Shown piece by piece: positions 11,420 through 42,130 of a DNA stretch of 64,000 nucleotides. The stretch lies in NCBI GenBank assembly GCA_047967505.1, contig CM106538.1. One strand, given 5' to 3'. A program made the translations under genes and the position numbers. The notes beneath the pieces were generated by a model. The model did no database searches, had not been told where the DNA came from, and was given only the letters and a program-made list of their open reading frames with translations. This DNA is from Dipteris shenzhenensis (taxonomy: Eukaryota). Every line of letters begins with the position of its first letter. The first letter of the stretch is position 1.

Positions 11420-13520
11420 GAACCTTAGATCATGACAGTGGTGCATCGTGCCACATGACTAGTCAGAAGGATTGGTATACCTCTCTACAGCTGGTAGGGA
11501 ATGACATCATGGTAGCAGTTGGCAATGATGCAAAATGTCTAGCAAAAGGAAAAGGTACGATTGCTCTCAAGTCAGATGGAGTTGTAAAATAGTTGTCCGA
11601 TATTCTTTATGTGCCAGATATCAAGAGGAACTTTTTGTCCATTTCTGCGATCACGGATCGGGACCTCAAAGTTCAATTAGATAAGAATGGTGCACAAATC
11701 CTGGATCTTTAAGGAAAGGTCATTGGTAAAGTTACACGGTGCAACAACATTTACGAACTCTTAGCTTTCAGTGCTCAAGTGGATGTGAAGAACACTAAGA
11801 TGTGGCATGAGAGGTTTGGTCATCTTAACCTTAGTTCTTTGAAGGAGATGCATAAAAGTGGAATGATTGCAGACCTACCAGAAATTTCAGATCTGCCCAA
11901 TGTATGTGAAGCTTGCATGATGGGCAAGCAGCATCGGCAGCCCTTTCCTAAAGAGGCCAACAAGGCAAAGGCTCCTCTAGAGCTCGTTCACATGGACCTC
12001 TACAGAAAGATGGAGATGGAAGCTTTGGGTGGTTCCTTCTACTTCATGACGCTGATCCATGACTACAATAGAAGGATATGGGTATACTTCTTGAAGACGA
12101 AAGACGAGGCTTTCAATAGGTTCAAGGAATGGCATGTAATAGTCGAGAAAGAATTTGGGAGGAAAGTGAAGAAGCTGAGATCAGATAGAGGTGGAGAGTT
12201 CACATCAACTGAATTCGAAAGTTACTACAAAAGTCATGGAATCAAGAGGCAAAAACCCCTGCCACATACATCACAGCAAAATGGAGTAGCAGAACACAAC
12301 ATGCGCGTCATCTGCGAAATGGGCTGGAGTATGATGAAAGGGAAAATTTTGCCAAAGTCTTTCTGGGCTAAATCATGTAACACTACAGTTTACATCCTCA
12401 ATCGTAGCTACACGAAGGCTGTGAACGGGATGACTCCACTACAAGCTTTCTCTGGTAAGAAACCTTCAGTTGCACATTTCAGAGTTTTTGGATGTGATTG
12501 TTTTGTGCATGTCCCTAATGCTACCAGGACCAAATGGGAACCGAAGAGCCAGAAGTGTATTTTCTTGGGCTACAGTGAAGAGGCAAAGGATTATCGTCTC
12601 TATAACCCTGTTACCAAGAAGGTAATTGTAAGTCACGATGTGGTCTTCTCAAAACAGCCACATCAATTGGAGGAGGATGCTTCCTTCCCAGACAACGAGG
12701 ACCAGGATATCCATCCAGTACCGCCACCAATAGCAAACCGAACTCCCCCAATGGTGCTTGGGAGGATTCAAGACAAAGAAGATGAAGAAGAGCCTGCAGA
12801 ACCACAATGGCAATGGCCATTCTTGAAGTGGGTAAAGCAACTTTTGGATGGCAAAGAACCTCTAGCCATTGAGGAGAAACCATCCAAACACCACCGGTCC
12901 AGGAGATTAGAGGAGCAAAGAAGGGCGCAGAAACACTTAGTCAACTATGCTTTGATGACAGAAGTGATCCGTGCTGATGAACCCAAGTGTCTTAAAGAGG
13001 CATAGGGCGATGATAGGTGGACGAAGGCTATGCAGTTGGAGTATGGCTCCATAATGAAGAACAACACTTGGGACCTTGTGGTTCGACCACCAAAATGCAA
13101 GGTAATCGGGACCCACTTCAAATACAAGTCCAACAGCACGTTGGATAAGTACAAGGCTTGGCTCGTGGCAAAAGGATTTGCACAGGTACATGGTTTTGAT
13201 TATCAAGATACTTTTGCTCCCACAGCTCAACTAACCACAATTCGCAGTGTTTTGGCATTAGCTGCCTAGGGAAGTTGGCCCGTGTTTCAGATGGATGTGA
13301 AATCTGCCTTTCTGAATGGAGATCTCAAGGAGGAGGTATACATGGAACAACCACCAGGTTTTGAGATCCCCGGTTCAGAAGGTAAAGTCTGCAAGCTAAA
13401 GAAGGCACTTTATGAGCTGAAACAGGCCCCATGAGCGTGGTACCAATGAATTGATGCCTACTTTCTACAAAACAGGTTTAGGAGGAGTCCATCTGATGCA
13501 AATTTGTATATCTTCAGGGA
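11420..13520 (+). mobile_element. Decayed Ty1/Copia pol fragment (protease, integrase, N-terminal RT), no LTRs seen
   Basis: [75 protein letters not shown]. Several in-frame stops. Confidence 0.9.
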
Positions 13521-13879
13521 TTTTCTCTCTCTCTCTCTCTCCTCCTAATTCTCTCTATAGCCATAGTCAAGACACCTCATTCTCTCTCTTAATCTCTCTC
13601 TCTCTCTCTGACAACTCTTATGTCTTTCCCTCTCTCTCCTCATCCCACTCATTCTCTCTCTTACTTTATCTCAAGTCTCTCTTTCTCTCCCTCCCATGGC
13701 CGCTAGGATTTATCATTCTCTCTCTTCATCTCTCTCTCTCCCCCTAGGATTTGTAATTATTTCTCTCTCTCTCTCTCCACCTCTCTCTCTAGAGATTTAT
13801 TATACTCTCTCTTGATCTCTCTCTAGGATTTGTAATTTTCTCTCTCTCTCTACCTAAGATTTATAATTCTCTCTCTTCA

Positions 13880-13954
<75 letters not shown>

Positions 13955-14164
13955 TACCTTCTCTACCTCCCTCCCTCTATCCTCTTGGCCGCTAGGATTT
14001 GTCATTCTTTCCCTCTCTATGTCTCTCTCTCTCTCTCTGAATTCTCTCTCTTAATCTCTCACTGCCTTCCTCCCTCCCTCCCTCCCTCTTCTCTCTCTCA
14101 TCTGTCCCTCTTCTCACTCTTAATCTCTCTTTCTCTCCCTCCCCTCATCTCTCTCATTTCTTAT

Positions 14165-14195
<31 letters not shown>

Positions 14196-14817
14196 CTCCC
14201 TCCCTCGGCGGCCACGAATAAATTTGAATTTTTAAAAAGAGGGAAATTTGAATTCATTCTTCTAGATAAATTTGAATTCAAATTTGTATTCAACATTCTT
14301 CTTGATACTTTCTTCTCATACGTCCCTTTTGAATTCAAATTTGTGCTCAACATTCTTCTTGATACTTTCTTCTCGTACGTCCCTCTTCATTCTTCTCGTA
14401 AGTCAAATCTTATTTGTTGCTCTTGCTCGTGATTGTTCTACTCTTAGTTGTAAGAATTCAACCTCTCTCCCTCTACTCCTCTCCTCTTCTCTATGTAGTG
14501 GGCTCTCTCTCTCTCTAATGGAGCTCCCTCTCTATGCGATGGAGCTCCCTCTCTAGTCGCATATCTCTCTCTCTCTAGTCGCATACCTTCCCAACCTTCC
14601 TCTAGTTGCGTACCTTCCTCTCTCCCTCAAGTCTTCTCATCTCTCCTCTCTCTCTAGTCACTTACCTTCCCCTCTCCCTAAAGTCTTCTCATCTCTCTTC
14701 TCTCTCTACTAGTGTTTCCCTCTCCATCACGTCTTCTCACCCCCCTCCCTCCCTCACTCCTCTCCCTCCCTTACTCCTCTAACTCTCCTCTCATCCCTGG
14801 GGGCCGTGGCCCCCAGG

Positions 14818-14858
<41 letters not shown>

Positions 14859-15081
14859 CTCCCTCCCCTCACTCCTCTCTCTCTCTCCCCTACCTTTTCC
14901 TCACTCCTCTCACCCTAGGGCTGTGGCTGCCAGGACCCCCCTCTCTCTCTCTCTCCCTCCCCTCCCTCTCCTCACTCCTCTCACCCTCCTCTCTCTCTCT
15001 CTCGCTCTCTCTCTCCCTTCCCTCCCTCCTCTCTCTCTCTCCCTCCCCTCCCTCTCACCCTGGGGGCCGCGGCCGCTAGGA

Positions 15082-15132
<51 letters not shown>

Positions 15133-15173
15133 CTCCCTCCCCTCCCTCTCACTCGGGGGTCGTAGCCACCAGG

Positions 15174-15247
<74 letters not shown>

Positions 15248-15429
15248 CGCTCGCTCCCTCCCCTCCCTCCTCTCTCTCTCTCCCTCCCCTCCCTCTCACC
15301 CTCGGGGCCGCCAGGACCCCCCCTCTCTCTCTCTCGCTCTCGTTCTCTCTCTCCCTCCCCTCCCTCCCTTCCCTCTCTCACCTCCCTCCCCTCCCTCTCA
15401 CCTTGGGGGCCATAGCTGCCAAGACCCCC

Positions 15430-15485
<56 letters not shown>

Positions 15486-15670
15486 CTCTCTCTCGCTCCT
15501 CTCTCTCTCTCCCTCCCCTCCCTCCCCTCCCTCTCACCCTAGGGGCTGTGGTCGCCAGGACCCCCCCTCTCTCTCTTCTTTCTCTCTCGCTCTCTCTCTC
15601 CCTCCCCTCCCTCCCCTCTCTCTCTCCCGTCCCTCCCCTTCCTCTCACCCTGGGGGCCACAACTGCCAGG

Positions 15671-15727
<57 letters not shown>

Positions 15728-15775
15728 CTCCCCTCCCTCCCCTCCCTCTCACCCTGGCGGTCACGGCTGCGAGGA

Positions 15776-15824
<49 letters not shown>

Positions 15825-15899
15825 CTCCCCTCCCTCCTCTCTCCCTCCCCTCCCTTCCCTCCCTCTCACCCTGGGAGCCGCAGCCGCCAGGACTCCCCC

Positions 15900-15943
<44 letters not shown>

Positions 15944-16232
15944 AGGGGCCGTGGCTGCCATGAACCCCCTCTCTCTCTCTGGTGCTCTCTCTCTCTCTTT
16001 CCCTCCCCTCCCTCCCCTCACTCCTCCCGCTGCCCCCTCACCCTCCCGCTGCCTCCCCCTACCCTTGCTCCCCCCTCTCGCCTCCCCCTACCCCGTCGCC
16101 CCCTACCCCGCCTTCCCCCCTCCCGCCTCCTGCCTCCCCCTACCCCACCGCCCCCTACCCCCGCTCCCTCCCCTCCCTCCTCTCTCTCTCTCCCTCACCT
16201 CCCTCTCACCCTGGTGACTGCGGCTGCTAGGA

Positions 16233-16269
<37 letters not shown>

Positions 16270-16329
16270 CCCTCCCTCCTCTCTCTCTCCCTCCCCTCCC
16301 TCTCACCCTGGGGGCCGCGGCTGCCAGGA

Positions 16330-16363
<34 letters not shown>

Positions 16364-16412
16364 CCCCCCCTCCCTAGGGGTTGCGACCGCCACGACCCCC
16401 TCTCTCTCTAGT

Positions 16413-16480
<68 letters not shown>

Positions 16481-16880
16481 CCTCCCTCCCCTCACTCCTC
16501 CCGCCGCCTCCTCACCCTCCCACTGCCTCCCCCTACCCCCACTCCCCCTACCCCCGCTCCCCCTACCTCGCCGCCCCCTACCCCACCTGCCCCCCTCCCA
16601 CCTCCTGCCTCCCCCTACCCTACTGCCCCCTACCCCCGCTCGCCCCTCCTGCCTCACCCTACCCTCGCTCCCTACCCTGCCTCCCCCCTCCCGCCTCCCC
16701 CTACCCCTGCTCCCTACCCCGCCGCCCCCTACCCCGACTCCCCCCTCCCTACCCCCGCTCCCTCCTTTTGCCTCCCCCTACCCCGCCGCCCCCTACCCTC
16801 GCTCCCCCCTCCTGCCTCTCTACCCCGCTGCCCCCCTCCCACCTCCCCCTCCCCCCGCTCCCTACCCTGTCGCCCCCTAC
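13520..16880. repeat. (CT)n microsatellite/minisatellite tract with a GC-rich core motif and CCCCTACCCC repeats
   Basis: Long (CT)n runs; about 14 copies of 'ctcaccct(g/a)gggg.....gc.gccaggacccc' in 14790-16400; many cccctacccc units in 16020-16880. Confidence 0.9.
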
Positions 16881-16932
16881 AACTTTTGGAATACAAGCTC
16901 TCTCATTCTCTCTATCTTCTTGTGAGTTGTTG

Positions 16933-19900
16933 CCTTGTGATTGCCATTCCTACCCCCATGCACCTCAACCTAGTTTAGCTTGACTGGGGTGCAAAGTGGA
17001 GCCCCCATCCGATAAGTTCTTGTTTGAATAACACACCTATTACCGTGTTTTTTTATGGTTGTGCATTACACTAAGGCAAAAACGGTGTTTTATGCTTGAT
17101 CGACAATGCAAAGCATATTCGATGGACATAATACTTTGCACACCTTAAACTAAGTGAAATTGACTTACATGCAAAGTGGAGCACCCATCCCATAAGTACT
17201 TGATCGAATAACATATCTAGCAGCGTGTATTTTTACGGATGTGCATGACACGAGCAAAAATGGCATTTAATGCTCGATCGACCATGCAAAGCATATCCGA
17301 TGGGCACAATACTTTTCCTATGCCTCAACCTAGGTGGTATTGAAATGTTCTCAAAGAGGCATACCCATCCGATAAGTACTTGGTCAGATAACATACCTAA
17401 GGGCGTGTTTTTTTGTGGATGTGCATATCACTATAGCAAAAACGGTGGATAATGTGTGCTCGACCATGCAAAGCATATCCGATGGTCACAATAGTTTGCA
17501 CGCACCTCAACCTAGTTGAAACAGACTTGTGTGCAAAGTGGAGCACCCATCCCATAAGTACTTGATCGAATAACATACCTAGAAACGTGTTTTTTTACGG
17601 ATGTTACCTTGTGATTGCCATTCCTACCCCCATGCACCTCAACCTAGTTTAGCTTGACTGGGGTGCAAAGTGGAGCCCCCATCCGATAAGTTCTTGTTTG
17701 AATAACACACCTAGGACCGTGTTTTTTTATGGTTGTGCATTACACTAAGGCAAAAACGGTGTTTTATGCTTGATCGACAATGCAAAGCATATCCGATGGG
17801 CATAATACTTTGCACACGCCTTAAACTAGGTCAAATTGACTTACATGCAAAGTGGAGCACCCATCCCATAAGTACTTGATCGAATAACATACCTAGCAGC
17901 ATGTATTTTTACGGATGTGCATGACACTGGAGCAAAAATGGCATTTAATGCTCGATCGACCATGCAAAGCATATCCCATGGGCACAATACTTTTCCTATG
18001 CCTCAACCTAGGTGGTATTGAAATGTTCTCAAAGAGGCATACCCATCTGATAAGTACTTGGTCAGATAACATACCTAAGGGCGTGTTTTTTTGCGGATGT
18101 GCATATCACTATGGCAAAAACGGTGGATAATGCGTGATCGACCATGCAAAGCATATCCGATGGTCACAATACTTTGCACGCACCTCAACCTAGTTGAAAC
18201 ATACTCGTGTGCAAAGTGGAGCGCCCATCCCATAAGTACTTGATCGAATAACATACCTAGAAATGTGTTTTTTTGCGAATGTGCATGACACTATGGCAAA
18301 CACGGTGTTTTATGCCTGATCGACAATGCAAAGCATATCTGATGGGCATAATACTTTTCACACACCTTAAACTAGGGGAAATTGACTTACATGCAAAGTG
18401 GAGCACCCATCCCATAAGTACTTGATCGGATAACATGCCTAGCAGCATGTTTTTTTATGAAGGTGCATGACACTAGAGCAAAAATAGTATTTAATGCCCG
18501 ATCGACCATGAAAACGATATCCGATGGACACAATACTTTTCCTACACCTCAATCTAGGTGGTATTGAAATGTTCTCAAAGAGGCACACCCATTCGATAAG
18601 TACTTGGTCAGATAACATACCTAAGGGCGTGTTTTTTTGCAGATGTGTATATCACTACCGGAAAAACGTTCTATAATGTGTGATCGACCATGCAAAGCAT
18701 ATCCAATGGTGACAATACTTTACACACACCTCAACCTAGTTGAAATAGACTTGCGTGCAAAGTGGATCCCCCATCCGATAAGTACTTGTTTGAATAACAC
18801 ACCTAGGACCGTGTTTTTTTATGGTTGTGCATGACACTAAGGCAACAATGGTGTTTTATGCTTGATCGACAATGCAAAGCATATCCGATGAGCACAATAC
18901 TTTGCACACACCTTAAACTAGGTGGAATTGACTTACATGCAAAGTGGCATTCCCATCGCATAAGTACTTGATCGGATAACACACCTAGCAGTGTGTTTTT
19001 TTACGGATGTGCATGACACTAAGGCAAAAATGGTATTTAATGCTCGATCGACCATAAAAAGCATATCTGATGGGCACAACAATTTTCCTATGCCTTAACC
19101 TAGGTGGTATTGAAATGTTCTCATAGTGGGATTGACTTACATGCAAAGTGGCATTCCCATGGCATAAGTACTTGATCGGATAACACACCTAGCAGCAGGT
19201 TTTTTTAGGGATGTGCATGACACTAAGGCAAAAATGGTATTTAATGCTTGATCGACCATGAAAAAGGATATCCAATGGGCACAATACTTTTCCTACGCCT
19301 TAACCCAGGTGGTATTGAAATGTTCTCAAAGAGACACACCCATCCGATAAGTACTTGGTCAGATAACATACCTAAGGGCGTGTTTTTTTATAGATGTGCA
19401 TATCACTATAGGAAAAACATTGTATAATGCGTGATCGACCATGCAAAGCGTATCCGATGGTGATAATAATTTGCATACACCTCAACCTAGTTAAAACAGA
19501 CTTTTTTGCAAAGTGGAGCCCCCATCCGATAAGTACTTGTTTGAGTAACTCACCTAGGAGTCCGCTGTTTTTTTATGGTTGTGCATGACACTAAGGTAAA
19601 AATGGTGTTTTATGCTTGATCGACAATGCAAAGCATATTCGATGGGCACAATAATTTGCACACACCTTCAACTAGGTGGAATTTACTTACATGCAAAGTG
19701 GCATTCCCATCGCATAACTACTTGATCGGATAACATACCTAAGGGCGTGTTTTTTTATGGATGTGCATATCACTACTAGAAAAACATTGTATAATGCGTG
19801 ATCAACCATGCAAAGCATATTTGATGGTGACAATACTTTGCACACACCTCCACCTAGTTGAAATGGACTTGTGTGCAAAGTGGAGCCCCCATCCAATAAG

Positions 19901-22900
19901 TACTTGTTTAAATAACACACCTAGGACCGTGTTTTTTTATGGTTGTGCAATACACTAGAGTCAAAATGGTGTTTTATGCTTCATCGATAATGCAAAGCAT
20001 ATCTGATGGGCATAATACTTTGCACACACCTTAAACTAGGTGGAATTGACTTACATGCAAAGTGGCATGCTTATCTCATAAGTACTTGATCGGATAACAT
20101 ACCCAGTAACCTGTTTTTTTACGGATGTGCATGACACCAAGGCAAAAATGGTATTTAATGCTCGATCGACCATGCAAAGAATATCCGATGAGCACAATAC
20201 TTTCCCTACCCATTAACCTAGGTGGTATTGACATGTTCTCAAACAAGCACACCCATCCGATAAGTACTTGGTCAGATAACATACCTAAGGGCGTGTTTCT
20301 TTGCGAATGTGCATATCACTAGGGAAAAAACGGTGTATAATGCATGATCGACCATGAAAAGCATATCCAATGGTCACTACACTTTGCACGCACCTCAACC
20401 TAGTTGAACGATACTTGCATGCAAAGGGGAGCCCCCATCCGATAAGTACTTCTTTGAATAACACACCTACGACCGTGTTTTTTTATGGTTGTGCATTACA
20501 CTAAGGCAAAAACGGGGTTTTATGCTTGATCAACAATGAAAAGCATATCTGATGGGCACAATACTTTGCACACATCTTCAACTAAGTGTCATTGACTTAC
20601 ATGCAAAGTGGCGCACCCATACCATAAGTACTTGATCGGATAACATACCTAGCAACGTGTTTTTTTTTGGATGTGCATGACACTAGAGCGAAAATAGTAT
20701 TTAATGCTCAATCGACCATGCAAAGGATATCTGATGGGCACAAGACTTTTCCTATGCCTCAACCTAGGTGGTATTGAAATGTTCTTGAAGAGGCACACCC
20801 ATTCGATAAGTACTTGGTCAGATAACATACCTAAGGGCGTGTTTTTTTGCGGATGTGCATATCACTACGGGAAAAACGGTGGACAATGCGTGATTGACCA
20901 TGCAAAACACATCTGATGGTCACAATACTTTGCACGCATCTCAACCCAGTTGAAATAGACTTGCAGGCAAAGTGGAGCACCCATTCCATAAGTACTTGAT
21001 CGGATAACATACCTAGCAGCGTGTTTTTTTACGGATGTGCGTGACACTAAGGTAAAAACGGTGTTTTATGCTTGATCGACAATGCAAAGCATATCCGATG
21101 GGCACAATACTTTGCACACACCTTCAACTAGATGGAATTAACTTACATGCAAAGTGGCATGCCCATCCCATAAGTACTTAATCGAATAACATACCTACCA
21201 GCATGTTTTTTTTATGGATGTGCATGACACTAGAGCAAAAATGGTATTTAATGCTCGATCGACAATGCAAAGGATATCCGATGGGCACAATACTTTTCCT
21301 ATGCCTCAATCTAGGTGGTATTTACATGTTCTCAAAGAGGCACACCCATCAAATAAGTACTTCGTTGGATAACACACCTAAGGGCATGTTTTTTTGTGGA
21401 TGTGCATATCACTAGGGAAAAAACAGTGTATAATGCGTGATGGACTGCGCAAAGCATATCCGATGGTCACAATACTTTGGACACACCTCAACCTTGTTGG
21501 AACCATCTGAGAAGTACTTGTTTGAATAACACACCTAGGACTGTGTTTTTTTATGGTTATGCGTGACACTAAGGCAAAAATGGTGTTTTATGCTTGATCG
21601 ACAATGCAAAGCACATATGATGGGTACAATACTTTGCACACACCTTAAACGAGATGGAATTGACTTACATGCAGGTGGCATGCCCATCCCATAAGTATTT
21701 GATCGGACAACATACCTAGCAGCGTGTTTTTTTACGGATGTGCATGACACCAAGGCCAAAATGATATTTAATGCTCGATCAACCATGCAAAGCATATCCG
21801 ATGGGCACAATACTTTTCCTAAACCTCACCCTAGGTGGTATTGACATGTTTTCAAATAGGCACACCCATCCAATAAGTACTTGGTCAGATAACACACCTA
21901 AGGGCTTTTTTTTTTGCAAATGTGCATATCACTAGGGAAAAAACGGTGTCTAATGCACGATCGGCCATGCAAAGCATATCCGATGGTCACAATACTTTGC
22001 AAGAACCTCAAGCTAGTTGAAACTGACTTGTGTGCAAAGTGGAGCCCCCATCTTAGAAGTACTTGTTTGAATAACACACCTAGGACGTGTTTTTTTATGG
22101 TTGTGTATGACACTAAGGCAAAAATAGTGTTTTATGCTTGATCGACAATGCAAAGCATATCCAATGGGCACAATACTTTGTACACACGTTCAAATAGGTG
22201 GAATTGACTTACTTGCAAAGTGGCACACCCATCCCATAAGTAATTGATCGGATAACATACCTAGCAGCGTGTTTTTTTACGAATGTGCATGACACTAGAG
22301 CAAAAATAGTATTTAATGCTCGATCGACCATGCAAAGGATATCCGATGGGCACAATAATTTTCATATGCCTCAATGTAGGTGGTATTGAAATTTTCTTAA
22401 AGAGGCACACCCATCCGATAAGTACTTGGTTAGATAACATACCTAAAGGTGTGTTTTTTTGCGGATGTGCATATCACTATGGTAAAAACGGTGGATAATG
22501 CGTGATCAACCATGCAAAGCATATCTGATGGTCACAATACTTTGCACGCACCTCAACCTAGTTGAAATAGACTTGGGTGCAAAGTGGAGCACCCATCCCA
22601 TAAGTACTTGATCGAATAACATACCTAGCAGTGTGTTTTTTTACGGATGTGCATGACACTAAGGCAAAAACGGTGTTTTATGCTTGATCAATAGTGCAAA
22701 GCATATCCAATGGGCAAAATACTTTGCATACACCTTCAACTAGGTGGAATTAACTTACATGCAAAGTGGCACACCCATCCCATAAGTACTTGATCGGATA
22801 ACATACCTAGCAGTGTGTTTTTTTACGGATGTGCATGATACTAGAGCAAAAATGGTATTTAATGCTCGATCGACAATGCAAAGGATATCCGATGAGCACA

Positions 22901-23845
22901 ATACTTTTCCTATGCCTCAACCTAGGTGGTATTGGCATGTTCTCAAAGAGGCACACCCATCAAATAAGTACTTGTCTAGATAACACACCTAAGGGTGTGT
23001 TTTTTTACGGATGTGCATATCACTAGGGAAAAACGGTGTATAATGCGTGATGGGCCATGCAAAGTATATCTGATGGTCACAATTCTTTACATGCACCTCA
23101 ACCTAGTTGAAATGGAATTGCATGCAAAGTGGATTCCCCATCTGAGAAGTAATTGTTTGAATAAAACACCTAGGACCGTGTTTTTTTATGGTTGTGCATG
23201 ACACTTAGGTAAAAACGGTGTTTTATGCTTGATTGATAATGCAAAGCATATCCGATGGGTACAATTCTTTGCAAACAACTTAAAATAGGTGGAATTGACT
23301 TACATGCAAAGTGGCATGTCCATCCCATAAGTACTTGATCGGATAACATAACTAGCAGCGTGTTTTTTTAGGATGTGCATGACACTAAGGCAAAAATGGT
23401 ATATAATGCTCGATCGACCATGCAAAGCATATCCGATGGGCACAATACTTTTCCTATGCCTCAACCTCGGTGGTATTGGCTTGTTTTCAAAGAGGTACAC
23501 CCATCCAATAAGTACTTGGTCAGATAACACACCTAAGGGTGTGTTTTTTGTTTATGTGCATATCATTAGGGGGAAAACGGTGTATAATGCGTGATTGACC
23601 ATGCAAAGCATATCTGACTTGTTTGCAAAGTGGAGCCCCCATCCGATAAGTACTTGTTTGAATAGCACACCTAGGACCGTGTTTTTTATGGTTGTGTATG
23701 ACACTGAGGCACAAAAGGTGTTTAATGCGTGATATACCATGCAAAGCATAGACGATGGGCACAATACTTTGCACGCACCTCAACGTAGGTGTTATTGAGT
23801 TGCATGCAAAGTGGCGTGTCCATTTGATGAGTACTTGATCAGGTA
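16933..23845. repeat. Tandem array of about 182-bp monomers (roughly 38-40 copies) with higher-order structure
   Basis: Monomer heads gcaaagtgg/tcaaagagg at e.g. 18211, 18393, 18575, 18757, 18939 (182-bp spacing). Three recurring subtypes occur in fixed order. Confidence 0.95.
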
Positions 23846-23943
23846 ACTTCTCCCACCAATAAATTAAGTACTAATTAAAAATTATAATAAATGAGTAGAT
23901 TATTAAAAAGAGACTAATATTTATGTAATTGTTGCTACTGCAG

Positions 23944-26900
23944 CTTAGCTTGCTTGCAAAGGACTCTCACAAAGGAGATGGATATAGATTTTGTTCTAGG
24001 GATGGATGTGATTTTATGTCGCAAAAGAGAAGTAGTTGCATTTGCTACAATCCATGATAGTGATCCCAATTCAGTTTGCCACTTTCGAAGACTTGGCGAA
24101 GATAAGGTGGCAGTTACTGTATCAAATATTCTTAGCACACATGTTGAGCTAAAGTATAAATGTGGAGATATGGAAACACTTGGAGATGTTATGCCCTACG
24201 ATACATCCAACAAATCATTTATAGCATGGGACAAAGATGAGACTTATGCAACAGACATTATCAAGAATACAAAGCCACCACTTGGATTTTACTATAGGGG
24301 ACATTTTACAAATGAGATCTTTTGCAAATAAGACTGTAGTAGAAGGTGAAGTATTAGGATTTGAACAAGTGGAGCAATGGTCATTTGCACAGATGAGGAT
24401 TCTAAAAGTCACTGATGATGGTATCGTTGATAACATAACATCCTTATGTAATCCCTACTATGAGGTAGGCAAGAATATGAGATGGAGCATGCAATTTTTA
24501 AACATGAGAAAGAGGCACGTGGTTTTCAATGATAAAGACAAAGTATACTACAATATCAAAGGACCTAAAAAGCATGCCATGTGCTAGGCTCTATCACTTC
24601 AAATGTGGATGATTTCAATGTACTCAATTATAGAACTGACATCCTATCTGGAGTGGATGAGTTCATTGGTTCCAAGAAACAAAATGATTTTAAAAGCGAA
24701 GCCTTATCTAGGGTGGATGAATTCTTGCACAGTGAGAAGGGCAAAGGTTTCAATAGCGATGTCTTGTCAAGTGTGGATGAGTTCATGCATATTAACAAAC
24801 CTGGTGTCAATCAAGCTTGTGGATTTGTGAAAGCCATGCAAGATGTCCCAATGAGCGATGTTCTCTCAGGAGTAGAAGAGTTTCAAGGTTCTCAATACTC
24901 TCATACAATATTGAATTCATTCAATGGTCCTAAGAGTATGTTAAAAATGAGGATGAGATCAACAGAGGATTATTCAATATTTAACTTTGATTGTGATATG
25001 GCCAAGGATGCAACGACCAATCATGGATGCTTAGTTACAAACAAATCTGAGGAGAAGAAATGCATAAATATAGATAACAACGTGCACGAGGAACGAAAAT
25101 GGTCATACATATGCATGAAGAGAAAGCGAATCGAGGCAGATCCACAAAAGCAACCAAAGAGGAAGAGAGTAATGAAGGAGGAGAACATGTTAAATGCATT
25201 GGGATATCTATGTTGCAAGTGAAGATGTATGCGCTTCATTGATCTTGCAGACATCAGGGAATGTAGAGGACACATGTGGCAAAGAAGAGGAAGCGAAAGA
25301 AATGAATACCTTCTCACAAGTCTCTCTTGCTTTCTTCAGAATGGCAACAAAAGGCTAAGTTCAAGACAAAAGGTAAAACCTCTCGTAAATGGAAAAAAGA
25401 TTTGCAATAAGGCATATCGCAATATTACTAGATTATCCCATGGTACATATTGGGATTTAGTCACCAAGGCAAAGGGTGGCAACAAATTTAGAATTCACAG
25501 TAATAGAGGAAGGTCTAAATCAAGAATCTCAACTGTCAGGGCAGCAACAATTTTGCAAGACTTCATAAATGAAAATGCTTTACCTCAACCCCATATATCT
25601 ACCAAACTCCCTAACATGACGCGATCACTGAAATGCACCTTCTAATGGGCTTGACAAAGCTCGAAGTATTTGACTCTATTGCAGAAAAGCAAGGCAAAGA
25701 GGGGATGCCATAGCTTCTTCTCATACTTTGTATACTCTTTGAAAGAAGAACTTTGGATATGTTAAAATCCCAAGGAGGAAAAAAATGTCAAAGTGCAATG
25801 TCTGTGATGATTTAAAGCGAGCGATTGAGAGTGCAACATGTCCAAATCAAAGGGAATTATACAAAAAAAACCGAAAATCTCATCATGACCTTATTCGACA
25901 TTCCAGACAAAAATATGCATTTTGGAAGGAGCAAGCTATTTCGCATCCCGATGACTATATGTGCCTTATTGTAGATGGCATGGATCAGAATACAACAACA
26001 TTGCTTCGTTTTGTTGCCACTCCACCTAAATTACAAGGAAAGCACTTTCTAAAGACACATCTATGTGGAGTGTTAGTGCATGGAATTAAGTTCTTTGCAG
26101 ATATATGGATTGATTCCTTACATCTACATGATAGCAATCAAGTTGTAACATCTATTATGAAGGCAATTTGCAATGTACATGCAAAAAAAGGTTGCCTACC
26201 ATCGACTTTGAGAATACAAGCTGATAATTGCTGGCGAGAAAATGAGAATGTACTCATGTTTGCATTCTGCTCCATGCTAGTTGCTCATCGAATCTTCAAT
26301 GAGGTCGAATGTGAATTTTTGTATGTTGGACATACACATGAGGATATCGATCAGGTTTTTAGTATAGTCTCAAGAGAACTTAAATGCAAGGATGTGGAGA
26401 CAATAGATGACTTAGTAAGAAGATGTGGCAGGCAAATTGGTGGTCGTAAGGAAAGTACAGTATGTGAGAGGCTCGAAAGAATGTATGATTGGAAGACCTT
26501 CATTCTACCTTTCATACAAATGGGTGGTGATGCATTGACAGGTCATACCAATCCACACTACTTTTGTTTTTTTTTTAAAGATGAAAAACCCGTAATGCAA
26601 TGGCAACAGTATTCGCATGATACAAAATGGGAACCTGAAGAACCTTACAGTCTCTTAACTTCAATTCTCAGCAAGGAAAGGTATCTAACATGGGCTCCTA
26701 TACAAGAATTCAATGAGAGGTCTAACTGTGAAATAGAAGGATTAAAAGCATTTATTACATACAAAGAGGAAATGCTCTGGAGATATCCTGTTTTGAAGCC
26801 TACTTGGAGAGAGCACACTACCACTGTAATTAACAAGACACAAAAATTAATAAAGGACCTTGAGAGAATGTGAGGCTCAAAGGATACAGCGGTATGGTAT

Positions 26901-27250
26901 GAGCCAAAGGGCAGGAAGGAGAATATGGATAACAACACATTTTATACCTCTTGTATACTAATTGTATAATGAAGCAGTGGGTCCCAAATGATGAAGCGGT
27001 CTCACAAGTTTCAATGGAGACAATCATAGTGTCTTGGCATTCAAGGGCAAAGAAATCAAAGAAGCACATGGGATATGAGGTAGAAGGAAAAATAAAAATA
27101 CCACAGCAAAGTATTTTGCATATACATGAATTTTTAAGGATGCTCGCCATGGAGGAAGTAGAAGGAGACAGCGCAAATGAAGAATGTCCATGATTAAAGC
27201 TTTGTATTGAAGTCCATTGAAGGATTTTATTTGGGTACTAGGCAAGAAGC
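23944..27250 (+). pseudogene. Decayed large gene ending in a DUF7869/Sola1-like putative DDE transposase
   Basis: Chain of same-strand ORFs (23954-24331, 24237-24587, 24581-25222, 25229-25645, 25785-26873, 26951-27193) broken by stops and frameshifts, preceded by a TGCAG acceptor at 23939-23943. Confidence 0.65.
25785..26873 (+). CDS. Putative DDE transposase core (DUF7869/Sola1-like)
   Basis: FGYVKIP..KMSKCNVC, CLIVDGMDQ, HLCGVLVHG, DSNQVVTSI, LRIQADNCWRENEN, FLYVGHTHEDIDQVFS. The family is recalled from memory and needs HMM confirmation. Confidence 0.75.
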   Translation: MSKCNVCDDLKRAIESATCPNQRELYKKNRKSHHDLIRHSRQKYAFWKEQAISHPDDYMCLIVDGMDQNTTTLLRFVATPPKLQGKHFLKTHLCGVLVHGIKFFADIWIDSLHLHDSNQVVTSIMKAICNVHAKKGCLPSTLRIQADNCWRENENVLMFAFCSMLVAHRIFNEVECEFLYVGHTHEDIDQVFSIVSRELKCKDVETIDDLVRRCGRQIGGRKESTVCERLERMYDWKTFILPFIQMGGDALTGHTNPHYFCFFFKDEKPVMQWQQYSHDTKWEPEEPYSLLTSILSKERYLTWAPIQEFNERSNCEIEGLKAFITYKEEMLWRYPVLKPTWREHTTTVINKTQKLIKDLERM

Positions 27251-28439
27251 CAATTGATAATTATAATCAGAGTCATCACCTCCTATGTCAAATGAGAGTC
27301 AAAAGATGCACTGGATATCACCCAAGGGTCAAGGCTTGGCAAGATAATAGGGAGTTAATGCAGATGGCACCTGGCAAGGGACTGTCACATTGAGCAATAA
27401 GACAATGGGGAGTCAATGCACCCAAGGGGCAGGCTTGGCAAGACAAGTGGGAGTTAATGCAGATGGCACCTAGCAAGGGACTGTCATGACATTGAGTAAT
27501 AAGACAATGGGGAGTCAAATTATGCAGATGGCACGAATTGAGGCTCTTTAAGAGCAACAATTTAAATTGTAAACATATGTTCAATCTATATCATTTTATA
27601 CAAAGACTCTAGCTGAGAGCAACGTCTCTCAATGTAAACATATAATGATAGCTATAATTGCTATTATAATTCTTTGGTTCAATACAAAACTTGGGTCTTA
27701 TGGCATCATGTCTTTTTTCTATTTATTAAAAGTTTTAAAACTTTTGTGCATATTGCGAATGACAATGTTATTTACATGAAATATATAAGTCTCCTTTCAT
27801 GGATTTATAAATTTATCACGTCAAGGAAAAATATTAAAAATAATTAAATTAACAAATAACTTAGGTATAGCTAGAATTACTAAAATAGGATTATTTCAAA
27901 TTCTTGCATGTTGGTGCAAAAGTATAGATTGAAAAAACAAGATTTTTATGTGAATATGATAGTGCCACAAAGTGAACTTTTGATTTGGGAAGAATATTTT
28001 CAGAAAGTAAAATTTTGATTTGGGAAGGATATTTTCACAAAGTAAACTTTTCATTTGGGAAGGATTTTTGGGCTTCGTCCAAAAACAATAGAAAAAGTTT
28101 AAAATCAATGAAATAGGTGTTATCCACCACCCATAAGTGGATGAGGGAGTCAACATGACCGAAGGACTTTGATGAGATGATGAAGAGGAGGAGTTCCTTT
28201 GAAACAACCCCAACATTTTTACTCTCTTCAAGGTGGACATACTCTCCAACAAGTACCACTTCCCTCAGGAAAGACCGATGCTAGATGATGATATACCAGT
28301 TGAGGATGATCCAAATTCATTATCATAAGTAATCAAAGATGCCTTGTTCGATATCTTGAACCTCGTTATGACAGAGGAAGATTTTGAGATGGAATTGCAA
28401 CACTCTCAAAGGGTGATCATGCCCTAACAAACATTAACC

Positions 28440-28990
28440 TTGGAATCGAGAACAACCCATGGATGGTTCGCATCAGCCACACGAGTTTGGGAAAAAACTA
28501 GAAGACCTCCTTGGGAGATTTGCTGACATCTTTACATGGAGATATATGGATATGAAGGGTATTGACCCTCGGTTTTATTAGCACAAGATTGTCCTTCAAG
28601 GTGATGCCAAACTGATCCGGCAATAGAATTACCAGATGAACCTGAACAATGAAAAACGGGTTAAGGAAGATATGTGGTTGCTTTCATATACCCCATTTAC
28701 AAGGTGACCTAGATCTCCCTGATTGTAATTGTACCCAAACAGAACAATAAGTTGTAGGTTTGTGTGGATTATTGCAAGCTCAACTTTGCAACCATGACCA
28801 ATCCATTCCCTCTCCCGTTCATGGATTCCATGGTAGATGTTGTCGCAGGTCATGAAATGTACTCATTTCTTGATGGGTTTAGTGGGTATAATCAGCTGCA
28901 AATGGGCAAAGAGAACCAATAAAAAATGGCATTCATAATTGAATGGGGGGTCTTTGCCTCCAATGTAATGATGTTTGGCCTAAAAAATAT
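28440..28990 (+). pseudogene. Decayed Ty3/Gypsy reverse transcriptase fragment
   Basis: DMKGIDP, VCVDYCKLN, PFPLPFMDSMVDVVAGHEMYSFLDGFSGYNQ, EWGVFASNVMMFGLKN, with stops. Confidence 0.85.
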
Positions 28991-29054
28991 GTATAAAAGG
29001 GATGTGTATCATCATGGTTGAGGTAATGAAGGCTTTCACCTTCACTGGGGGTTG

Positions 29055-29325
29055 TAGGGTTTAGGAGGAGTTTAAGGGTTTGGAGGAGGTTCCAGGGTTT
29101 AGAAGAGGTTCCAAGGTTAGAAGGGGTTCCAAGGTTAGAAGGAGTTCCAAGGTTTAGAAGGAGGTTCCAGATTTTAGAAGAGGTTCCAGGGTTAGAAGGA
29201 GTTCCAAGGTTTACAAGGAGGTTCCAGGGTTAGAAGGAGTTCTAGGGTTAGAAGGGGTTCCAATGTTTAGAAGGAGGTTCCAAGGTTAGAAGGAGTTCCA
29301 GGGTTAGAAGGGGTTCCAAGGTTTA
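29055..29325. repeat. 18-20-bp minisatellite (ggttcca(a/g)ggtt(t)agaagga)
   Basis: About 14 tandem units; some contain AGGGTT(T)AG. Confidence 0.85.
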
Positions 29326-29560
29326 GAGTAGAGTACATGGTGGAGAACTCGTCTCCCTCGTAGGTCATGGAGATTAAGGGTTGAGGAACTAAGGGTTTAG
29401 GGGGAGCATAGAAGTGGGAGAGGAAGAAGGTGTAAGAGCATGGGGGAACGAAGAGAGAGGAGGGAGGAGGAGGAGAGAGGAGGAGGAGGAGGAGGGAGGA
29501 GGAGGAGGAGGAGGAGGGAGGAGGAGGAGGAAGGAGGAGGAGGGAGGAGGAGAGGGAGAG

Positions 29561-30330
29561 GATGGGTTGCAAGGTTGGAGGAGAGGGGAGGAGGAGTTGC
29601 AAGGTTAGGACATGCTTTTGGACGTGGAGTGCAAGGAAGCATGGACAGTTGAGACAAATGCTTGGAATACCAAAGTAGACTCAACACAATGTCCCAAAGA
29701 GTGTGGGCTTCATTCCATTATGGGGTATTTGTACAAGTTGGAGAGCTTCTCTCTCTGCATGTAGGAATTATAACACATTCTCTCTCTACATGTAGAAGTC
29801 ATATGTAGAAGTTGTCACACATTCTCTTTCTACATGTAGAAGTCGTATGTAGAAGTTGATGGGTTGCAAGGTTGGAGGAGAGGGGAGGAGGAGTTGCAAG
29901 GTTAGGACATGCTTTTGGACGTGGAGTGCAAGGAAGCATGGACACTTGAGACAAATGCTTGGAATACCAAAGTAGACTCAACACAATGTCCCAAAGAGTG
30001 TGGGCTTCATTCCATTATGGGGTATTTGTACAAGTTGGAGAGCTTCTCTCTCTGCATGTAGGAATTATAACACATTCTCTCTCTACATGTAGAAGTCATA
30101 TGTAGAAGTTGTCACACATTCTCTTTCTACATGTAGAAGTCGTATGTAGAAGTTGTAACACATTCTCTTTCTACATATAGAACTCGTATGTAGAAGTTGT
30201 AACACATTCTCTTTCTACATGTAGAAGTCGTATGTAGAAGTTGTAACACATTCTCTTTCTACATGTAGAAGTCGTAACACATTCTCTTTCTACATGTAGA
30301 ACTTGCATATAGAAATTGATTGTAGAACTT
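29561..30330. repeat. 297-bp tandem duplication followed by 44-bp palindrome-containing repeats
   Basis: 29561-29857 is repeated from 29858. Then units 'ttgtaacacattctctttctacatgtagaagtcgtatgtagaag' containing the palindrome TTCTACATGTAGAA. Preceded by a (GGA)n tract at about 29455-29560. Confidence 0.9.
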
Positions 30331-32233
30331 GCATGTAGAACATGCAAATTGGATTTCTAAGAGGGATTATTTCTAGCCTTATGCAAGTACAAGTGGAGCT
30401 TTGCCGCTACTCTACACACACATTCTGTTCTACCTAAGTCCATGTTGGCACAGAGTCAACAGCCATTGTTAGAGGCTAGGTATCATGACACTACATAGTG
30501 TAGATACCTTAAGGCCCAAACCATAGCCCGTTATAGGCAAACCCTTGCCTTGCCCGCACCAGCAAATGCTCCCAATCAGCAAGGTGCCTAAACCATGAAC
30601 CCAGTCCATAGAGCTAGAGCATTCATGTTTCCAAACCTGTTACCACTACCCATCTTGCCACCACATTTGCCACCACCTACTATAACTCTAGTAAGCCAAA
30701 TGGTTACTAAAGAGATGGAGGAGTGGGATGGTGCTCAAAAATCATGGAGAGTAATTACCCCTCGGATGATGATGGCTTGTCTCAATTGATCTATGACATC
30801 ATCCAAGATGATGTTCCAATGCCCACATTTCAAAGTTCAATAGTTACAACTATGGCATGAGACATAAGTATCATCACCTTTGTTGTGGAATTAAGCATCT
30901 ATATGAGGATTGTCGCCTTAGGTCTCCATCAACATCTATATACCCCACCCTGGCAAGCCTTAATTGAGCAATGAAGGCAACTGGTTAGTGTCCCTTTGAA
31001 TGCAATCACCTGCTTTGTAGGCCACAACATTGGGTAAATCATCCAACAAGCACAAGGCCAAGGTTGGCACCTCTCATTGCAACTCAATTGAGCAAGGATT
31101 AACCACTGGCCTATAATGCAAGTAGTTAAAGAATAGGACCACACAATCCTTTAGAGCAGGTCCATGAGGATACAACCATTATGACATCACAAACATCAAG
31201 TGGAAAGTCCTCAGAGGGAGGTGTAATCAACCTCATAGCACAAGAACTATAAGGGTAGAGGGATTAGATACACCACCAACACTCAAGGGCCTTGGTGATT
31301 ATCCTAGCCCCCTTATTGAGAAACAAAGGTTAATTAAAAATCAAGACCCAGTTTGAGATGTTGCTTCCTGGGAAAGAGCATAAGTCGATGTGGGTGGCCA
31401 AACAAGTTCCAGTGACTGGGCCCCTTCAATGGCTTTGCAGGTCATTGGTGACTGGGGTGGCATTTGTTCTTCTTGGTCATGCACTGAATCCTTATGGAGC
31501 TATCGCTCTGGACCACAAATGGATGTGGTCACCGTGGTTAAGAGGATGTAAATGGCTGCGAACTATGGAGGGGGTCTCGTGGTTGAGGCAGTGGGCTCTT
31601 TCTGCGCATCCTCTTTAGTGACGGCATCTTTCTGAACCTGCATCCATGTGTATGAGGTGTACCATTGATCATTAGATTAGTTGGCATGACGGTATGACCT
31701 TTCTATGTGTGTGTGAGAGATCTTATTTTTATACATGCTTTGAGAGTGTTGGGCAATGATAGAAACATAATAAGGGTCCAAACACAATCCACCCTTATTA
31801 TTCACCCAATTCACCACCTAAGAGGCCAATGGATGTTCTAGGTAGAGTGGAGAAAGAAGAACGAACTTGGAACAAACAGACTTCCATCCCAACTTAATGG
31901 AACATATGTTTGAAGAAGATCTAGCAATCAAAGGACTGAAGGAGGAGGACAATATGTCCCTTATTGGTTTCTAGGAGCTAAAAAAACACAAATGACTACA
32001 TAGAATGACCTAGGGACATAGCAGGTCTCTAAGCCTTCTTGTCCATTGAGATAAAAATGCCAATGGCCACTTTGCCGAGAGGATTTCCCTCCCTTTGGAG
32101 AGATCTCTCTGATAGTATGAATGAACAACTTCTCATGGCCAAATTGCACAATGAGGTTAAAGAATCTTAGGTTGAGAACCTCAACTTACTCAAAGCATTA
32201 TCTTCTCATTGAAAGAGGCAAATATATTAAGGG

Positions 32234-34970
32234 GATGGTGAACAAGATAGGGTCATTATTTTGAGAGTGATAACACCAATGCAATGATTCCCATAACTTG
32301 CAAAGATGGGAAAGCTAAATCTATCTTGGATGGTGGGTTACGAGTCAAAATAATCACCAAGCAATGTTGGAAAAGGTAGGGTGAGCCTTTAACGTGATGG
32401 TGAATAAGATAGGGTCATTATTTTGAGAGTGATAACACCAATGCATTGCTTCCCATAACTTGTAAACATGGGAAAGCTACAACTATCTTGGATAGTGGGT
32501 TACGAGTCAAAATAATCACCAAGCAATGTTGGCAAAGGTGGGGTGAGCCTCAAATGGATGCTACAACCCTTGTTAAGGTAGCCAATGGCACAACCACATG
32601 CCACTTGGAATACTAAGAGGTGTTAGGATCAATGCCTCTTACCTATCATATAGGAATGCGTTTGTAATTATGGACTTTAAGAAATAGCTAGAATCATATG
32701 ACATCATTCTTGGCTATCCATTTATGAGACTATTTGACTCATTCATGGACGGTACCCAAACCACATCTATTTGACAAAGGGTGTGATACACAATGAAAGT
32801 GAACCTAATAACATAAAAGTATCGACCCACGAGTGGTAGCCTTTTTGTTGAAGAGTCAATGGCCACAACAAGAAAATGCCTCATTGAATACAATGCAAGT
32901 TAAATAATCACAAGGCAAGGATAATCAAGTTCTAATATATGCACAGCTCCCTGATCTCGAGGACCCACGGAATTGGATGTATCTCAAGAATGACAATGTC
33001 CCTCAATATGAGATATGTCTCTCAAATAGAGCTAGGGGTCGTTATTGTCGACTCATATTTCAAATAGTTAGAACACATGGGAGCCACTACCACTCACCAA
33101 GAATTCTCAACAGTTTGGGTCCTAAAACTCAGCAAGCTTACCATTCCAATTGGATACAAAGGAGCAAAGAGGGATGAATGTCCGAGGAATGTCCCAAGGC
33201 TACCCAAAATAAAGAGGCCAAATAGCCCAAGAAGCTAACAAAACTGGCATCCCTAGAAGAATTCAAGAACGACATAAGCTTAAAAAAGGAAAAGGAGGAA
33301 AATATGCAAAGCATTACTCCAAGCATGTTGAAAATATAAAGGGAAGGATGTAGTCGTCATTAAATAGTTGTCATTTCTATTGGTCCTATTCAATGTAATT
33401 CCAAGTACTCATTTGATAGAACAAAAGTAGAAGAATATATAGGTATTATCTTCTTGGTGGATCACATTCAACCAAAGCAAAGGGACAATTGCATTTAGAG
33501 TATCCAAATACTCATTTTCATAATGTTTGTAGTTACAAAGTATTTGTAGTATCTTGCTCAAAATCAAGTAAGAAATGTCAAATGAGTTCATTGAGTCAAT
33601 TTCTCTACATTTTATGCTAAAGTTAAATTTCAAAATTTTTATGATGTTATGCCTTTGAAATGCCAACGACTTTTGTTATCCTTTTGAAAATGCTAATGAA
33701 CTTTTTACGTTCATGAAGGCATAAAATTTAGATTCAAATTCAAGAGCACATGATGCAGCTCTTAAATTATGCAAACTAGAAGGTGTTGGTACAAGAGTAC
33801 CTTGAATCAAGAAAAATGAAGTGCCTTACTCTTTTCAATATGGTTTTCAAAAACATGAATGAAACATTTTCTATAACTTCATTATTAATTGTTCATTAAC
33901 TTGATTTCATTTCTAATCGTAATGTCTTTGCTCTCAGAAACATTCCAAATGTGGATAAGAAAATAAGGTTCCAAATAATTTTCAAAACTCGAAGGATGGC
34001 CAAAACCAGCAATCACCTACTACAACAACAAGTACATAATTCAATAAAAATAGCAATTGGAATGATTAATGATCACCATAAGCATTCGACTATATCAAAA
34101 GCGCCCAAATCCCATACAATGGTAATAGTTACCACAACAAAACTTGCAACTAACCAACAAACCACCTGCATGAACAATGTGCAAAAATCAAATACTAGGG
34201 GCAACTAAGCAAAAACTTTGCATCAATTTTCCCCAGAGCCGCTATATCTTACACTACTAAATCTTGCACTTCAACAAGATCTACTGTAGTGGTAACTACT
34301 CTAATTAAATTCTTGACGTGTTTGAGATTCAAGTCTATTCTAACGATGATTTTCTAGACTCCTTTGACAACCAAGTGATTCAAACGTTCATCTTCCAAAG
34401 AGGATAGTTTGACCCATCTAGCTTTTTGGCCTCCCCAAAGTTGGGGATCAACAATCAGCTAGCCATCTTGAGGTGAACCTTGTGAGCCGGTATGGATTCA
34501 GTACTTAACTAAATCATTGAGTTTTCTTGAACTAGAAGGAACTCTATAGTTTAAGCAAGTCCCTATTTACAAATCCTAAATGGTCTAATAATGCAAGATT
34601 GTCATCGCAAAATCCAAATGATGGATCAACTAAGGTAAAGGAAACACCCTCAATTGGGCTATATTGCCAAAGACTTGAAACCAAAAGAGGAGGAAGAGCT
34701 CATAACTCTCCTCAAGGATTTTAAGGATTTCTTTGCTTGGAAGTACACTGTTATGAAGGGTATATTGATAGAAGTCATAAAACATACCATTGGACCTTCA
34801 TTAAAAATGTCAAACCATCCCAATAATATCTTTATACAATGAATCCAAAAACCAAGACTGTTGTCAATGAAAAATCCAAAAGCTCATTGATGTAGGATCC
34901 ATTTTTGCTGTAGAGCATGCCAATTGGGTTCCCCAATCATAATTGTCCTAAAAAAGAACAAAAAGTGATA
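32234..34970 (+). mobile_element. Highly decayed Gypsy remnants (aspartic protease; start of RT)
   Basis: ILD(G/S)GL.VKIITKQCW..WGEP, present twice as a 162-bp duplication at 32234 and 32396. YDIILGYPFMR. LLKDFKDFFAWKYTVMKGI and IIIVLKKNK at 34650-34970. Confidence 0.6.

Positions 34971-41392: not shown

Positions 41393-42130
<738 letters not shown>

Follow-up and report, generated by a model that had tools for sequence, protein, structure and literature searches.

The 64,000-nucleotide stretch of Dipteris shenzhenensis DNA analysed here (GenBank assembly GCA_047967505.1, contig CM106538.1; hereafter the window) contains a tandem array of 182-bp repeats (16990..23845, plus strand) and, directly downstream on the same strand, a decayed transposase gene (23978..27187) belonging to a DUF7869-family DNA transposon whose body is provisionally placed at 23846..28174. 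An original prediction, made from the sequence alone, had proposed that the array is part of the element. The analysis below, which combines repeat structure, protein comparison, contigs of public runs and distant relatives from metagenomes, indicates that array and transposon probably belong together. The window holds one copy of the transposon and one array.

The 182-bp array and the decayed transposase gene

The array consists of 38 head-to-tail monomers of about 182 bp, all on the plus strand and together 6.9 kb long; 37 are full or nearly full, and the last is a 43-nt partial monomer (23801..23845, plus strand, monomer positions 1-43). Tandem Repeats Finder (TRF) detected arrays with periods of 182 and 364 over 16992-23614, its top row (17666-23614) having a period of 364, 16.4 copies and a score of 5548. 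A BLASTN search of the window with a single monomer returned 38 matches, all on the plus strand, from 16990 to 23790, and none outside the array. Successive monomer starts were 180-185 bp apart in 33 of the 37 intervals. The count and the end at 23845 agreed with the predicted 38-40 or so monomers ending near 23845, and the predicted start at 16933 had to be moved: the repeats begin at 16990, and sequence reading identified 16933..16989 (plus strand) as a lead-in of non-repeat edge and partial monomer spacer. This edge recurs at 17605-17663, and the lead-in lies within a 674-bp tandem duplication (16928..18282, plus strand; two copies, 96.8% identical) that takes in the left edge of the array and 3.7 monomers. 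In local alignment of 16928-17604 with 17602-18282, 655 of 677 aligned bases were identical. The 674-bp duplication is young and arose later than the array.

The monomers follow an A-B-C order that forms a 546-bp higher-order repeat of about 12 units. Mean identity between monomers was 0.75 at lag 1, 0.83 at lags 3, 6, 9 and 12, and 0.75-0.78 at the other lags; grouped by type, it was 0.86 within types and 0.75 between them. The 546-bp period was invisible to TRF because the longest period considered by that program was 500. The three-monomer higher-order repeat is old, and a long single-family head-to-tail array with a multi-monomer period has the form of satellite DNA. The inverted repeat that marks each monomer boundary is imperfect: its arms, 29-35 nt long, show 72-77% complementarity. 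The 7-mer ATCCGAT occurs 39 times in the window, compared with 4 expected, and 37 of these occurrences lie inside the array, on both strands; the remaining two are far from it.

The first ATG of the transposase reading frame, at 23978, lies 133 bp beyond the end of the array, within plus-strand stop-to-stop open reading frames (ORFs) that begin at 23918. The gene was traced from its ORFs, from tblastn with relatives, from the distribution of frames and stops and from family contigs. It is split over frames 2, 0, 2, 2, 0 and 2, with in-frame TGA stops at 25220 and 25740. By tblastn, residues ~186-391 of the relatives aligned with 25034-25630 (frame 2), residues 417-785 with 25701-26783 (frame 0) and residues ~965-1053 with 26954-27169 (frame 2); between 26783 and 26954, some 140-160 residues of the relatives had no counterpart. 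The C-terminal homology (26954..27187, plus strand) therefore stands in a different frame from the core that precedes it. Compared with full-length relatives and with contigs of the public runs, the window copy has an internal deletion of ~0.4-0.5 kb at about 26885.

Contigs of four public runs, of which three are referred to here as X1, X2 and X3, were compared with positions 23650-29050. In both X1 and X2, 24028-27170 was covered by two diverged contigs per stretch (records 1/2, 3/4 and 5/6 of X1; records 8/9 of X2), and loose contig ends were found on both sides of 26885. The presence of two diverged contigs for one stretch within a single run means that the transposon is a repeat family, with at least two diverged variants per run. 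The X1 contigs add up to 1.95 Mb, which suggests that the repeats alone assembled in that run. The window copy differed from the main family contigs by about 2.5% (23/923 and 22/939 letters); the first of these figures is that of X1 record 2 (24028-24947), and the more diverged X1 record 1 (24028-24513) had 76 other letters among 486. Relative to the window, the family contigs carried one-nucleotide insertions at 24274, 24280, 24576, 25615 and 25690, and a G in place of the A at 25742. The numbers of inserted bases exactly join the successive ORFs (frames 2, 0, 2 and 0), so the main form of the family very likely has one long frame, which would start with the ATG at 23978, end near 27190 and lack introns. 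The gene at this locus is dead. Thus the long same-strand coding region that had been placed about 100 bp after the array does start there (ORFs from 23918, ATG at 23978), but it is broken by frameshifts, stops and the deletion.

Downstream of the gene, the 3' non-coding part of the transposon (27319..28069, plus strand) has small tandem repeats of its own, which were found by TRF: a 100-bp unit repeated twice at 27319-27518 and a 35-bp unit repeated three times at 27966-28069. These repeats are unrelated to the 182-bp monomer, and no monomer-like or inverted-monomer match was found in 27319-28069. The right end of the transposon lies before a gypsy-type pol fragment that is readable from ~28300, which sets an outer bound.

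The catalytic core and its relatives

The predicted DGMDQ / QADNC / GHTHEDIDQ core was found in a 376-aa ORF (25743..26873, plus strand), which holds the motifs LIVDGMDQ, RIQADNC and VGHTHEDIDQ; the ATG at 25785, given previously as the ORF start, lies within it. The ORF matched Pfam PF25273 (DUF7869) at an E value of 4.9e-51 and a score of 173.5 bits (gathering cut-off 26), its residues 97-292 spanning profile positions 3-191 of 192. Relatives of the core numbered 99 among proteins about as long as it and 25 among longer proteins. Those few that carry an organism name come from bivalves and a sea urchin and are uncharacterised; full-length relatives comprise some 1050-1070 residues. Across 47 aligned members, Q159, H197, H199, D201 and I202 were invariant, and D78, G79, D81, Q82, D161, N162, E200 and D203 were kept in at least 90%. 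D78 belongs to DGMDQ, D161 to QADNC, and E200, D201 and D203 to GHTHEDIDQ.

An AlphaFold model of the core had a predicted local distance difference test (pLDDT) score of 90.0 and a predicted template modelling (pTM) score of 0.88. Its strands (72-79, 103-112, 116-123, 155-160 and 187-192) and helices (131-149, 170-181 and 200-215) follow the RNase H-like order b1-b2-b3-a1-b4-a-b5-a. In the model, D78 ends strand 1, D161 comes right after strand 4, and E200 and D201 start the helix after strand 5, so the conserved, putatively catalytic acidic residues occupy the canonical DDE/D places. Structural alignment with VIA-align against 48161 Protein Data Bank (PDB) representatives placed retroviral integrases first, with simian immunodeficiency virus (SIV) integrase (6rwl_A) at Z 10.5, a root-mean-square deviation (rmsd) of 2.5 and 131 aligned residues. 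Mos1 mariner transposase (3hos_A) followed at Z 10.1, rmsd 3.8 and 184 aligned residues; IstA, TnsB, Sleeping Beauty, Tn5 and Hermes reached Z 7.1-9.4, and Metnase was also among the followers. A Z of at least 8 was reached by 22 of the 48161 chains. Foldseek against the PDB gave no match at E <= 0.001, and its weak rows were all RNase H-like (Argonaute PIWI, IstA, EndoV and RNase HI). A sequence search of the PDB with the core gave no match, and the ESM Atlas returned DUF7869 clusters only. The Pfam match, the model and the structural matches to integrase and Mos1 support the identification of the core as a DDE/D transposase of RNase H fold, in line with the resemblance noted in the original prediction.

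Distant relatives of the transposase (24-39% identity) were collected from 80 metagenome loci, of which 78 were non-redundant. In four of these loci, L001 and L002 (94% alike) and L003 and L008 (both 72-78% alike to L001), palindromes of 23-27 nt are arrayed exclusively 5' of the transposase. The palindrome sequence differs between these sub-families and the arrangement is kept: the arrays end 1.41-1.49 kb before the catalytic core, compared with 1.9 kb in the window. The array of L002 (5263-5667) is followed, 0.8 kb downstream, by an intact 829-aa DUF7869 ORF. The L001/L002 element is about 8.6 kb long (L002:722-9353) and has a perfect 38-bp terminal inverted repeat (722-759 in L002, 4133-4170 in L001), so that the array of L002 lies between the terminal repeats of the element (722 and beyond 9353). 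At L013 and at L038/L044, repeated motifs flank the gene on both sides; in the latter pair, clusters of the palindrome TGGTGGCCACCA lie at about 5880-7110 and 12093-12426, on the two sides of the transposase gene. Terminal inverted repeats of 26 nt together with a 4-bp duplication were seen at L018, the sole convincing case of this kind among the 80 loci.

Other features were observed at these loci. The L001/L002 element has three divergent ORFs, of 558, 156 and 258 aa, the last of which matches the N6_N4 DNA methylase family (E 1.3e-10). A 47%-identical counterpart of the 558-aa ORF of L002 occurs at L007, likewise upstream and on the opposite strand. In the L034/L035 contig (15548 bases), the transposase match is surrounded by a perfect inverted duplication of 3192 nt, which is probably an assembly palindrome.

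Relationship between the array and the transposon

The junction of array and transposon was recovered in two of the public runs, where the last partial monomer was contiguous with the transposon body from 23812. In X2, a 253-nt contig (record 7) covers 23812-24050 and thus bridges the boundary, taking in 34 letters of array and 205 of transposon. With 7 other letters and 5 gap letters, the contig is not this very sequence. Its X1 counterpart has a loose end at 23812, beyond which 54 further upstream letters did not align to the window. These letters are monomer-like in another register, and the 30 of them displayed match an internal part of the monomer. Together, the junction contigs of X1 and X2 indicate that other copies also have monomer-like sequence before the same partial monomer, differently arranged.

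The relative ages of the two parts were compared by their divergence. Within a type, monomers are about 14% divergent, several-fold more than the ~2.5% between the transposon copy and its family, which argues that the array was not built after this copy arose. As the array predates the copy, it was either carried along or already in place when the transposon arrived. The lack of BLASTN matches to the monomer on the 3' side of the transposon argues against the view that the element inserted within an array that already existed.

We consider it somewhat probable (about 55%) that the locus is a decayed, non-autonomous copy of a DUF7869 transposon in which the 182-bp repeat represents the element's own 5' region, expanded to a satellite-like array. 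The element would be a multicopy cut-and-paste DNA transposon with a DUF7869-family DDE/D enzyme of RNase H fold, and the 182-bp unit would descend from a repeated control or binding module 5' of the transposase gene, as seen in relatives. Unequal exchange could have expanded first the monomers, then the A-B-C unit and then the 674-bp piece; as the element decayed, a satellite-like array would have been left attached to a dead gene. The array would then lie within the termini of the element and move with it, its monomers, with their degenerate inverted motifs, would derive from transposase-binding or promoter-proximal repeats, and such copies could seed satellite DNA. Binding of the transposase to the motifs of the array is itself suggested by analogy. 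The proposal that the array is part of the element thus gained support from the junction contigs in two runs, from the greater age of the array and from the internal array of a relative, and found none in the termini, for which nothing in the window exceeded controls. A broader version, in which DUF7869 transposons, as an uncharacterised superfamily that may be related to Sola1 and ranges from protists and animals to a fern-like plant, share a one-sided array of inverted motifs upstream of the transposase as a binding or control region that has here turned into a mobile, transposon-spread 182-bp higher-order satellite, is doubtful.

Several observations weigh against membership of the array in the element. 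The junction contigs extend just 19-54 letters into the repeat and so do not evidence long arrays in other copies. The depth of the X2 junction contig (11.6) is close to that of the main body contig (12.8), and this contig could represent the same locus in another individual or species if X2 is a related plant at ~12-fold depth. The monomer and ATCCGAT are both absent from the transposon body and its 3' end. Among the 78 relatives' loci, arrays with a period of at least 40 and at least 2.5 copies were not enriched near the transposase, their densities per 10 kb being 0.76 upstream, 0.51 downstream and 0.89 farther away; of the 58 loci for which 800 bp or more of upstream sequence was available, 9 had an upstream array, and some of these upstream arrays look like coding repeats. 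Finally, no terminal inverted repeat or target-site duplication was found in the window, candidates having scores within those of shuffled controls or E values of at least 0.04. Inverted matches of 16850-17060, 23780-24060 and 13300-13800 to 27190-28320 scored 20, 26 and 20, the highest scores of the shuffles being 28, 30 and 36, and the best match between the left 17 kb and the right end was 15 nt long (E 0.043) and lay within the gypsy-like part. In X1 and X2, 28175-28898 had no contig cover, which proves nothing about the right end.

Three specific candidates for ends or derived elements were rejected. The monomer was considered as a MITE (miniature inverted-repeat transposable element) of the transposon by comparing nucleotides 1-60 of its consensus, and a complete dimer, with 23900-31000 and the right end; the best scores were 18-19, compared with a mean of 15.9 and a maximum of 26 for shuffles. 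The 9-bp direct repeat TTTGATGAG (23823-31 and 28158-66) was dismissed as a target-site duplication because more monomer sequence follows its left copy, which consequently does not flank the body. A C/T-rich block left of the array and a G/A-rich block at 29.4-29.6 kb were 70-89% complementary and might have been long inverted ends, but these were low-complexity matches.

The sequences around the pair are a patchwork of truncated retroelements. On the left, a copia integrase-reverse transcriptase frame runs from 11713 to about 13590 and breaks off at the C/T-rich block, a low-complexity flank of 3.3 kb (13590..16880, plus strand; TRF rows 13676-16880) that sits between the truncated copia reverse transcriptase and the array. 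This block is built of CT, CCCT and CCCCTAC-type units and is strongly strand-asymmetric, with a GC content of 0.55-0.56 and a GC skew of -0.47 to -0.68. On the right, the gypsy-type fragment (protease to reverse transcriptase) is readable from ~28300 to 29050 and is followed by the G/A-rich block (29056-29606), which is shorter than the C/T-rich one.

Such surroundings make adjacency by rearrangement easy, and they favour a different explanation, which we judge unlikely: that the array is an independent, older satellite at whose edge the transposon landed, or to which it was rearranged, so that the pairing has no functional meaning. An array much older than the transposon copy, the absence of termini enclosing it and the lack of general enrichment beside the transposases of relatives would all be expected of chance neighbours. 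Summed contig depth was higher for the monomer than for the transposon in three runs, contig depth not being copy number, and other arrays may therefore exist; monomer-like contigs in X1-X3 occurred in many variants, up to 16 at one place. Chance neighbours would not, however, be expected to leave non-identical contigs in two runs that join the same partial monomer to the 5' part of the transposon, the one in X1 continuing upstream into monomer-like sequence in another register, nor to lack monomers on the 3' side. The position of the array, ending 133 bp short of the ATG of a gene on its own strand, also mirrors the internal 5' arrays of L001, L002, L003 and L008.

Less likely still is a co-amplified block, in which array and dead transposon were copied together, not through transposition but through segmental or tandem duplication, with pericentromeric heterochromatin as one possible setting. 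A junction common to several copies that nevertheless lack detectable termini would be explained in this way, and duplication above the scale of the monomer is present in the window (the 546-bp unit and the 674-bp duplication), but 64 kb contain a single transposon copy and a single array. Large 3' indels between copies, such as a joint in X1 that runs from 27194 to 28001 and skips 806 letters, also fit a duplicated block. The ~16% difference between family variants (76/486) fits an old dispersed family equally well, and relatives include elements that are bounded by terminal inverted repeats and contain internal arrays. The option of a structured-RNA cassette, in which the monomers would encode a conserved RNA or single-stranded DNA hairpin, drew on the inverted repeat at each monomer boundary and on two of four boundary segments that beat shuffles as DNA folds (z -3.25 and -2.55), but it is highly improbable, as the other two did no better than shuffles (z -0.83 and +1.03), the whole higher-order unit folded as RNA had a z of -1.57, RNAalifold on 33 of the 38 monomers (five truncated or irregular ones omitted) gave a consensus of -4.0 kcal/mol with 12 pairs, 0 compensatory changes and none of the inverted arms, and at B-to-C junctions both arms have changed and pairing is not kept.

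Further to the right, several features were recorded in their own right. Nested repeats at 29561-30346 comprise two copies of a 297-bp unit (99% identity) enclosing five partly palindromic 44-bp units. At 33438-33572 (plus strand), a 45-residue remnant with the motif Y.Y..GGSHST.A..QL has 40% identity to the 558-aa ORF of L002 (E 9e-6); on sequence similarity, this remnant, which lies 5 kb beyond the transposon, may be debris from an accessory gene of such an element. A PLS-class pentatricopeptide repeat (PPR) gene occupies 37599-43529 (plus strand), with a 1023-aa open frame that ends in an E motif and a DYW deaminase domain 2.5 kb further on (43233-43529). Within it, 38238-40225 comprises 6.6 copies, 81% identical, of a 303-bp unit that corresponds to one P-L-S triplet. 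The best named relatives of this gene are from the ferns Adiantum and Ceratopteris, with 44-53% identity, which makes the fern setting named in the original prediction plausible.

Comparison with known transposon systems

The subterminal regions of En/Spm-CACTA and Ac/Ds elements contain many short transposase-binding motifs in both orientations and span a few hundred bp at both ends of the element. The window resembles them in having short motifs in both orientations near an element end, beside the transposase gene, and differs in that its array is 6.9 kb long, one-sided and built of 182-bp units, with binding that is putative. L001 and L002 belong to the same transposase family (32-33% identity to the window core) and, like the window, have an array of inverted motifs on the 5' side alone and on the same strand. 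Their array, however, measures about 0.4 kb and consists of perfect 23-nt palindromes, it lies in an intact element with 38-bp terminal inverted repeats, and it has no sequence similarity to the array in the window.

The original prediction had likened the gene to Sola1, a superfamily of DNA transposons reportedly described by Bao, Jurka and Kapitonov in 2009 and by Yuan and Wessler in 2011. Compared by descriptions only, both are eukaryotic cut-and-paste elements with an RNase H-fold enzyme. The acidic residues D78, D161 and D201/D203 of the window enzyme could form a DDD triad, its relatives are long (~1050 aa) with named members in bivalves and a sea urchin, and L018, a distant relative, combines terminal inverted repeats of 26 nt with a duplication of 4 bp. 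In the sources consulted, Sola1 elements are characterised by a 4-bp AWWT target-site duplication (PMC3845634) and are long, with a mean of 5445 bp in bivalves (PMC10294476); a 'Physcomitrella Sola1' is listed for plants (PMC9033089, Table 1), and, as of 2017, Pfam contained no family for the RNase H domains of Sola elements (PMC5751038). The duplication at L018, in contrast, reads AAAA, not AWWT, and lies inside an A-run, E200 of the window family is as conserved as the aspartates, and no termini or duplication were seen in the window. Neither these sources nor the other literature consulted for the purpose gives Sola1 protein motifs with which the core could be compared. A full-text literature search for 'DUF7869' returned no paper.

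Links between transposons and satellites are well documented for MITEs, Helitrons and long terminal repeat (LTR) elements, and undocumented, as far as the literature was searched, for the DUF7869 family and for ferns. Searches on satellites, DNA transposons and ferns gave, among the matches listed, none about a fern by title, and those on Sola, subterminal tandem repeats and transposases gave none relevant by title. Should the element carry the array, the locus would show a transposon control region in the course of turning into a higher-order satellite, and the repeated inverted motifs beside the gene would offer a handle on transposase recognition sites; if array and transposon are mere neighbours, this is ordinary repeat-rich plant DNA.

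Transposon-borne arrays and transposon-derived satellites are as such a known kind. A review (PMC12628747) describes DNA transposons that carry tandem repeats and the satellites derived from them, including Xenopus miDNA4, the Xstir MITEs and the central satellite-DNA-like arrays of Helitrons and Helentrons. According to that review, such class II elements have a short internal or end array of variable copy number, which can grow into a classical satellite while the ends of the element decay (PMC12628747). The window differs from these examples in its carrier, which is a DUF7869 DDE/D transposon and not a Tc1/mariner MITE or a Helitron, and in its array, which has a three-monomer higher-order structure and lies directly upstream of the transposase, its position inside the element being probable. 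As in the tandem-repeat-carrying elements, the array is attached to a decayed element, and it is here far longer than in the relatives.

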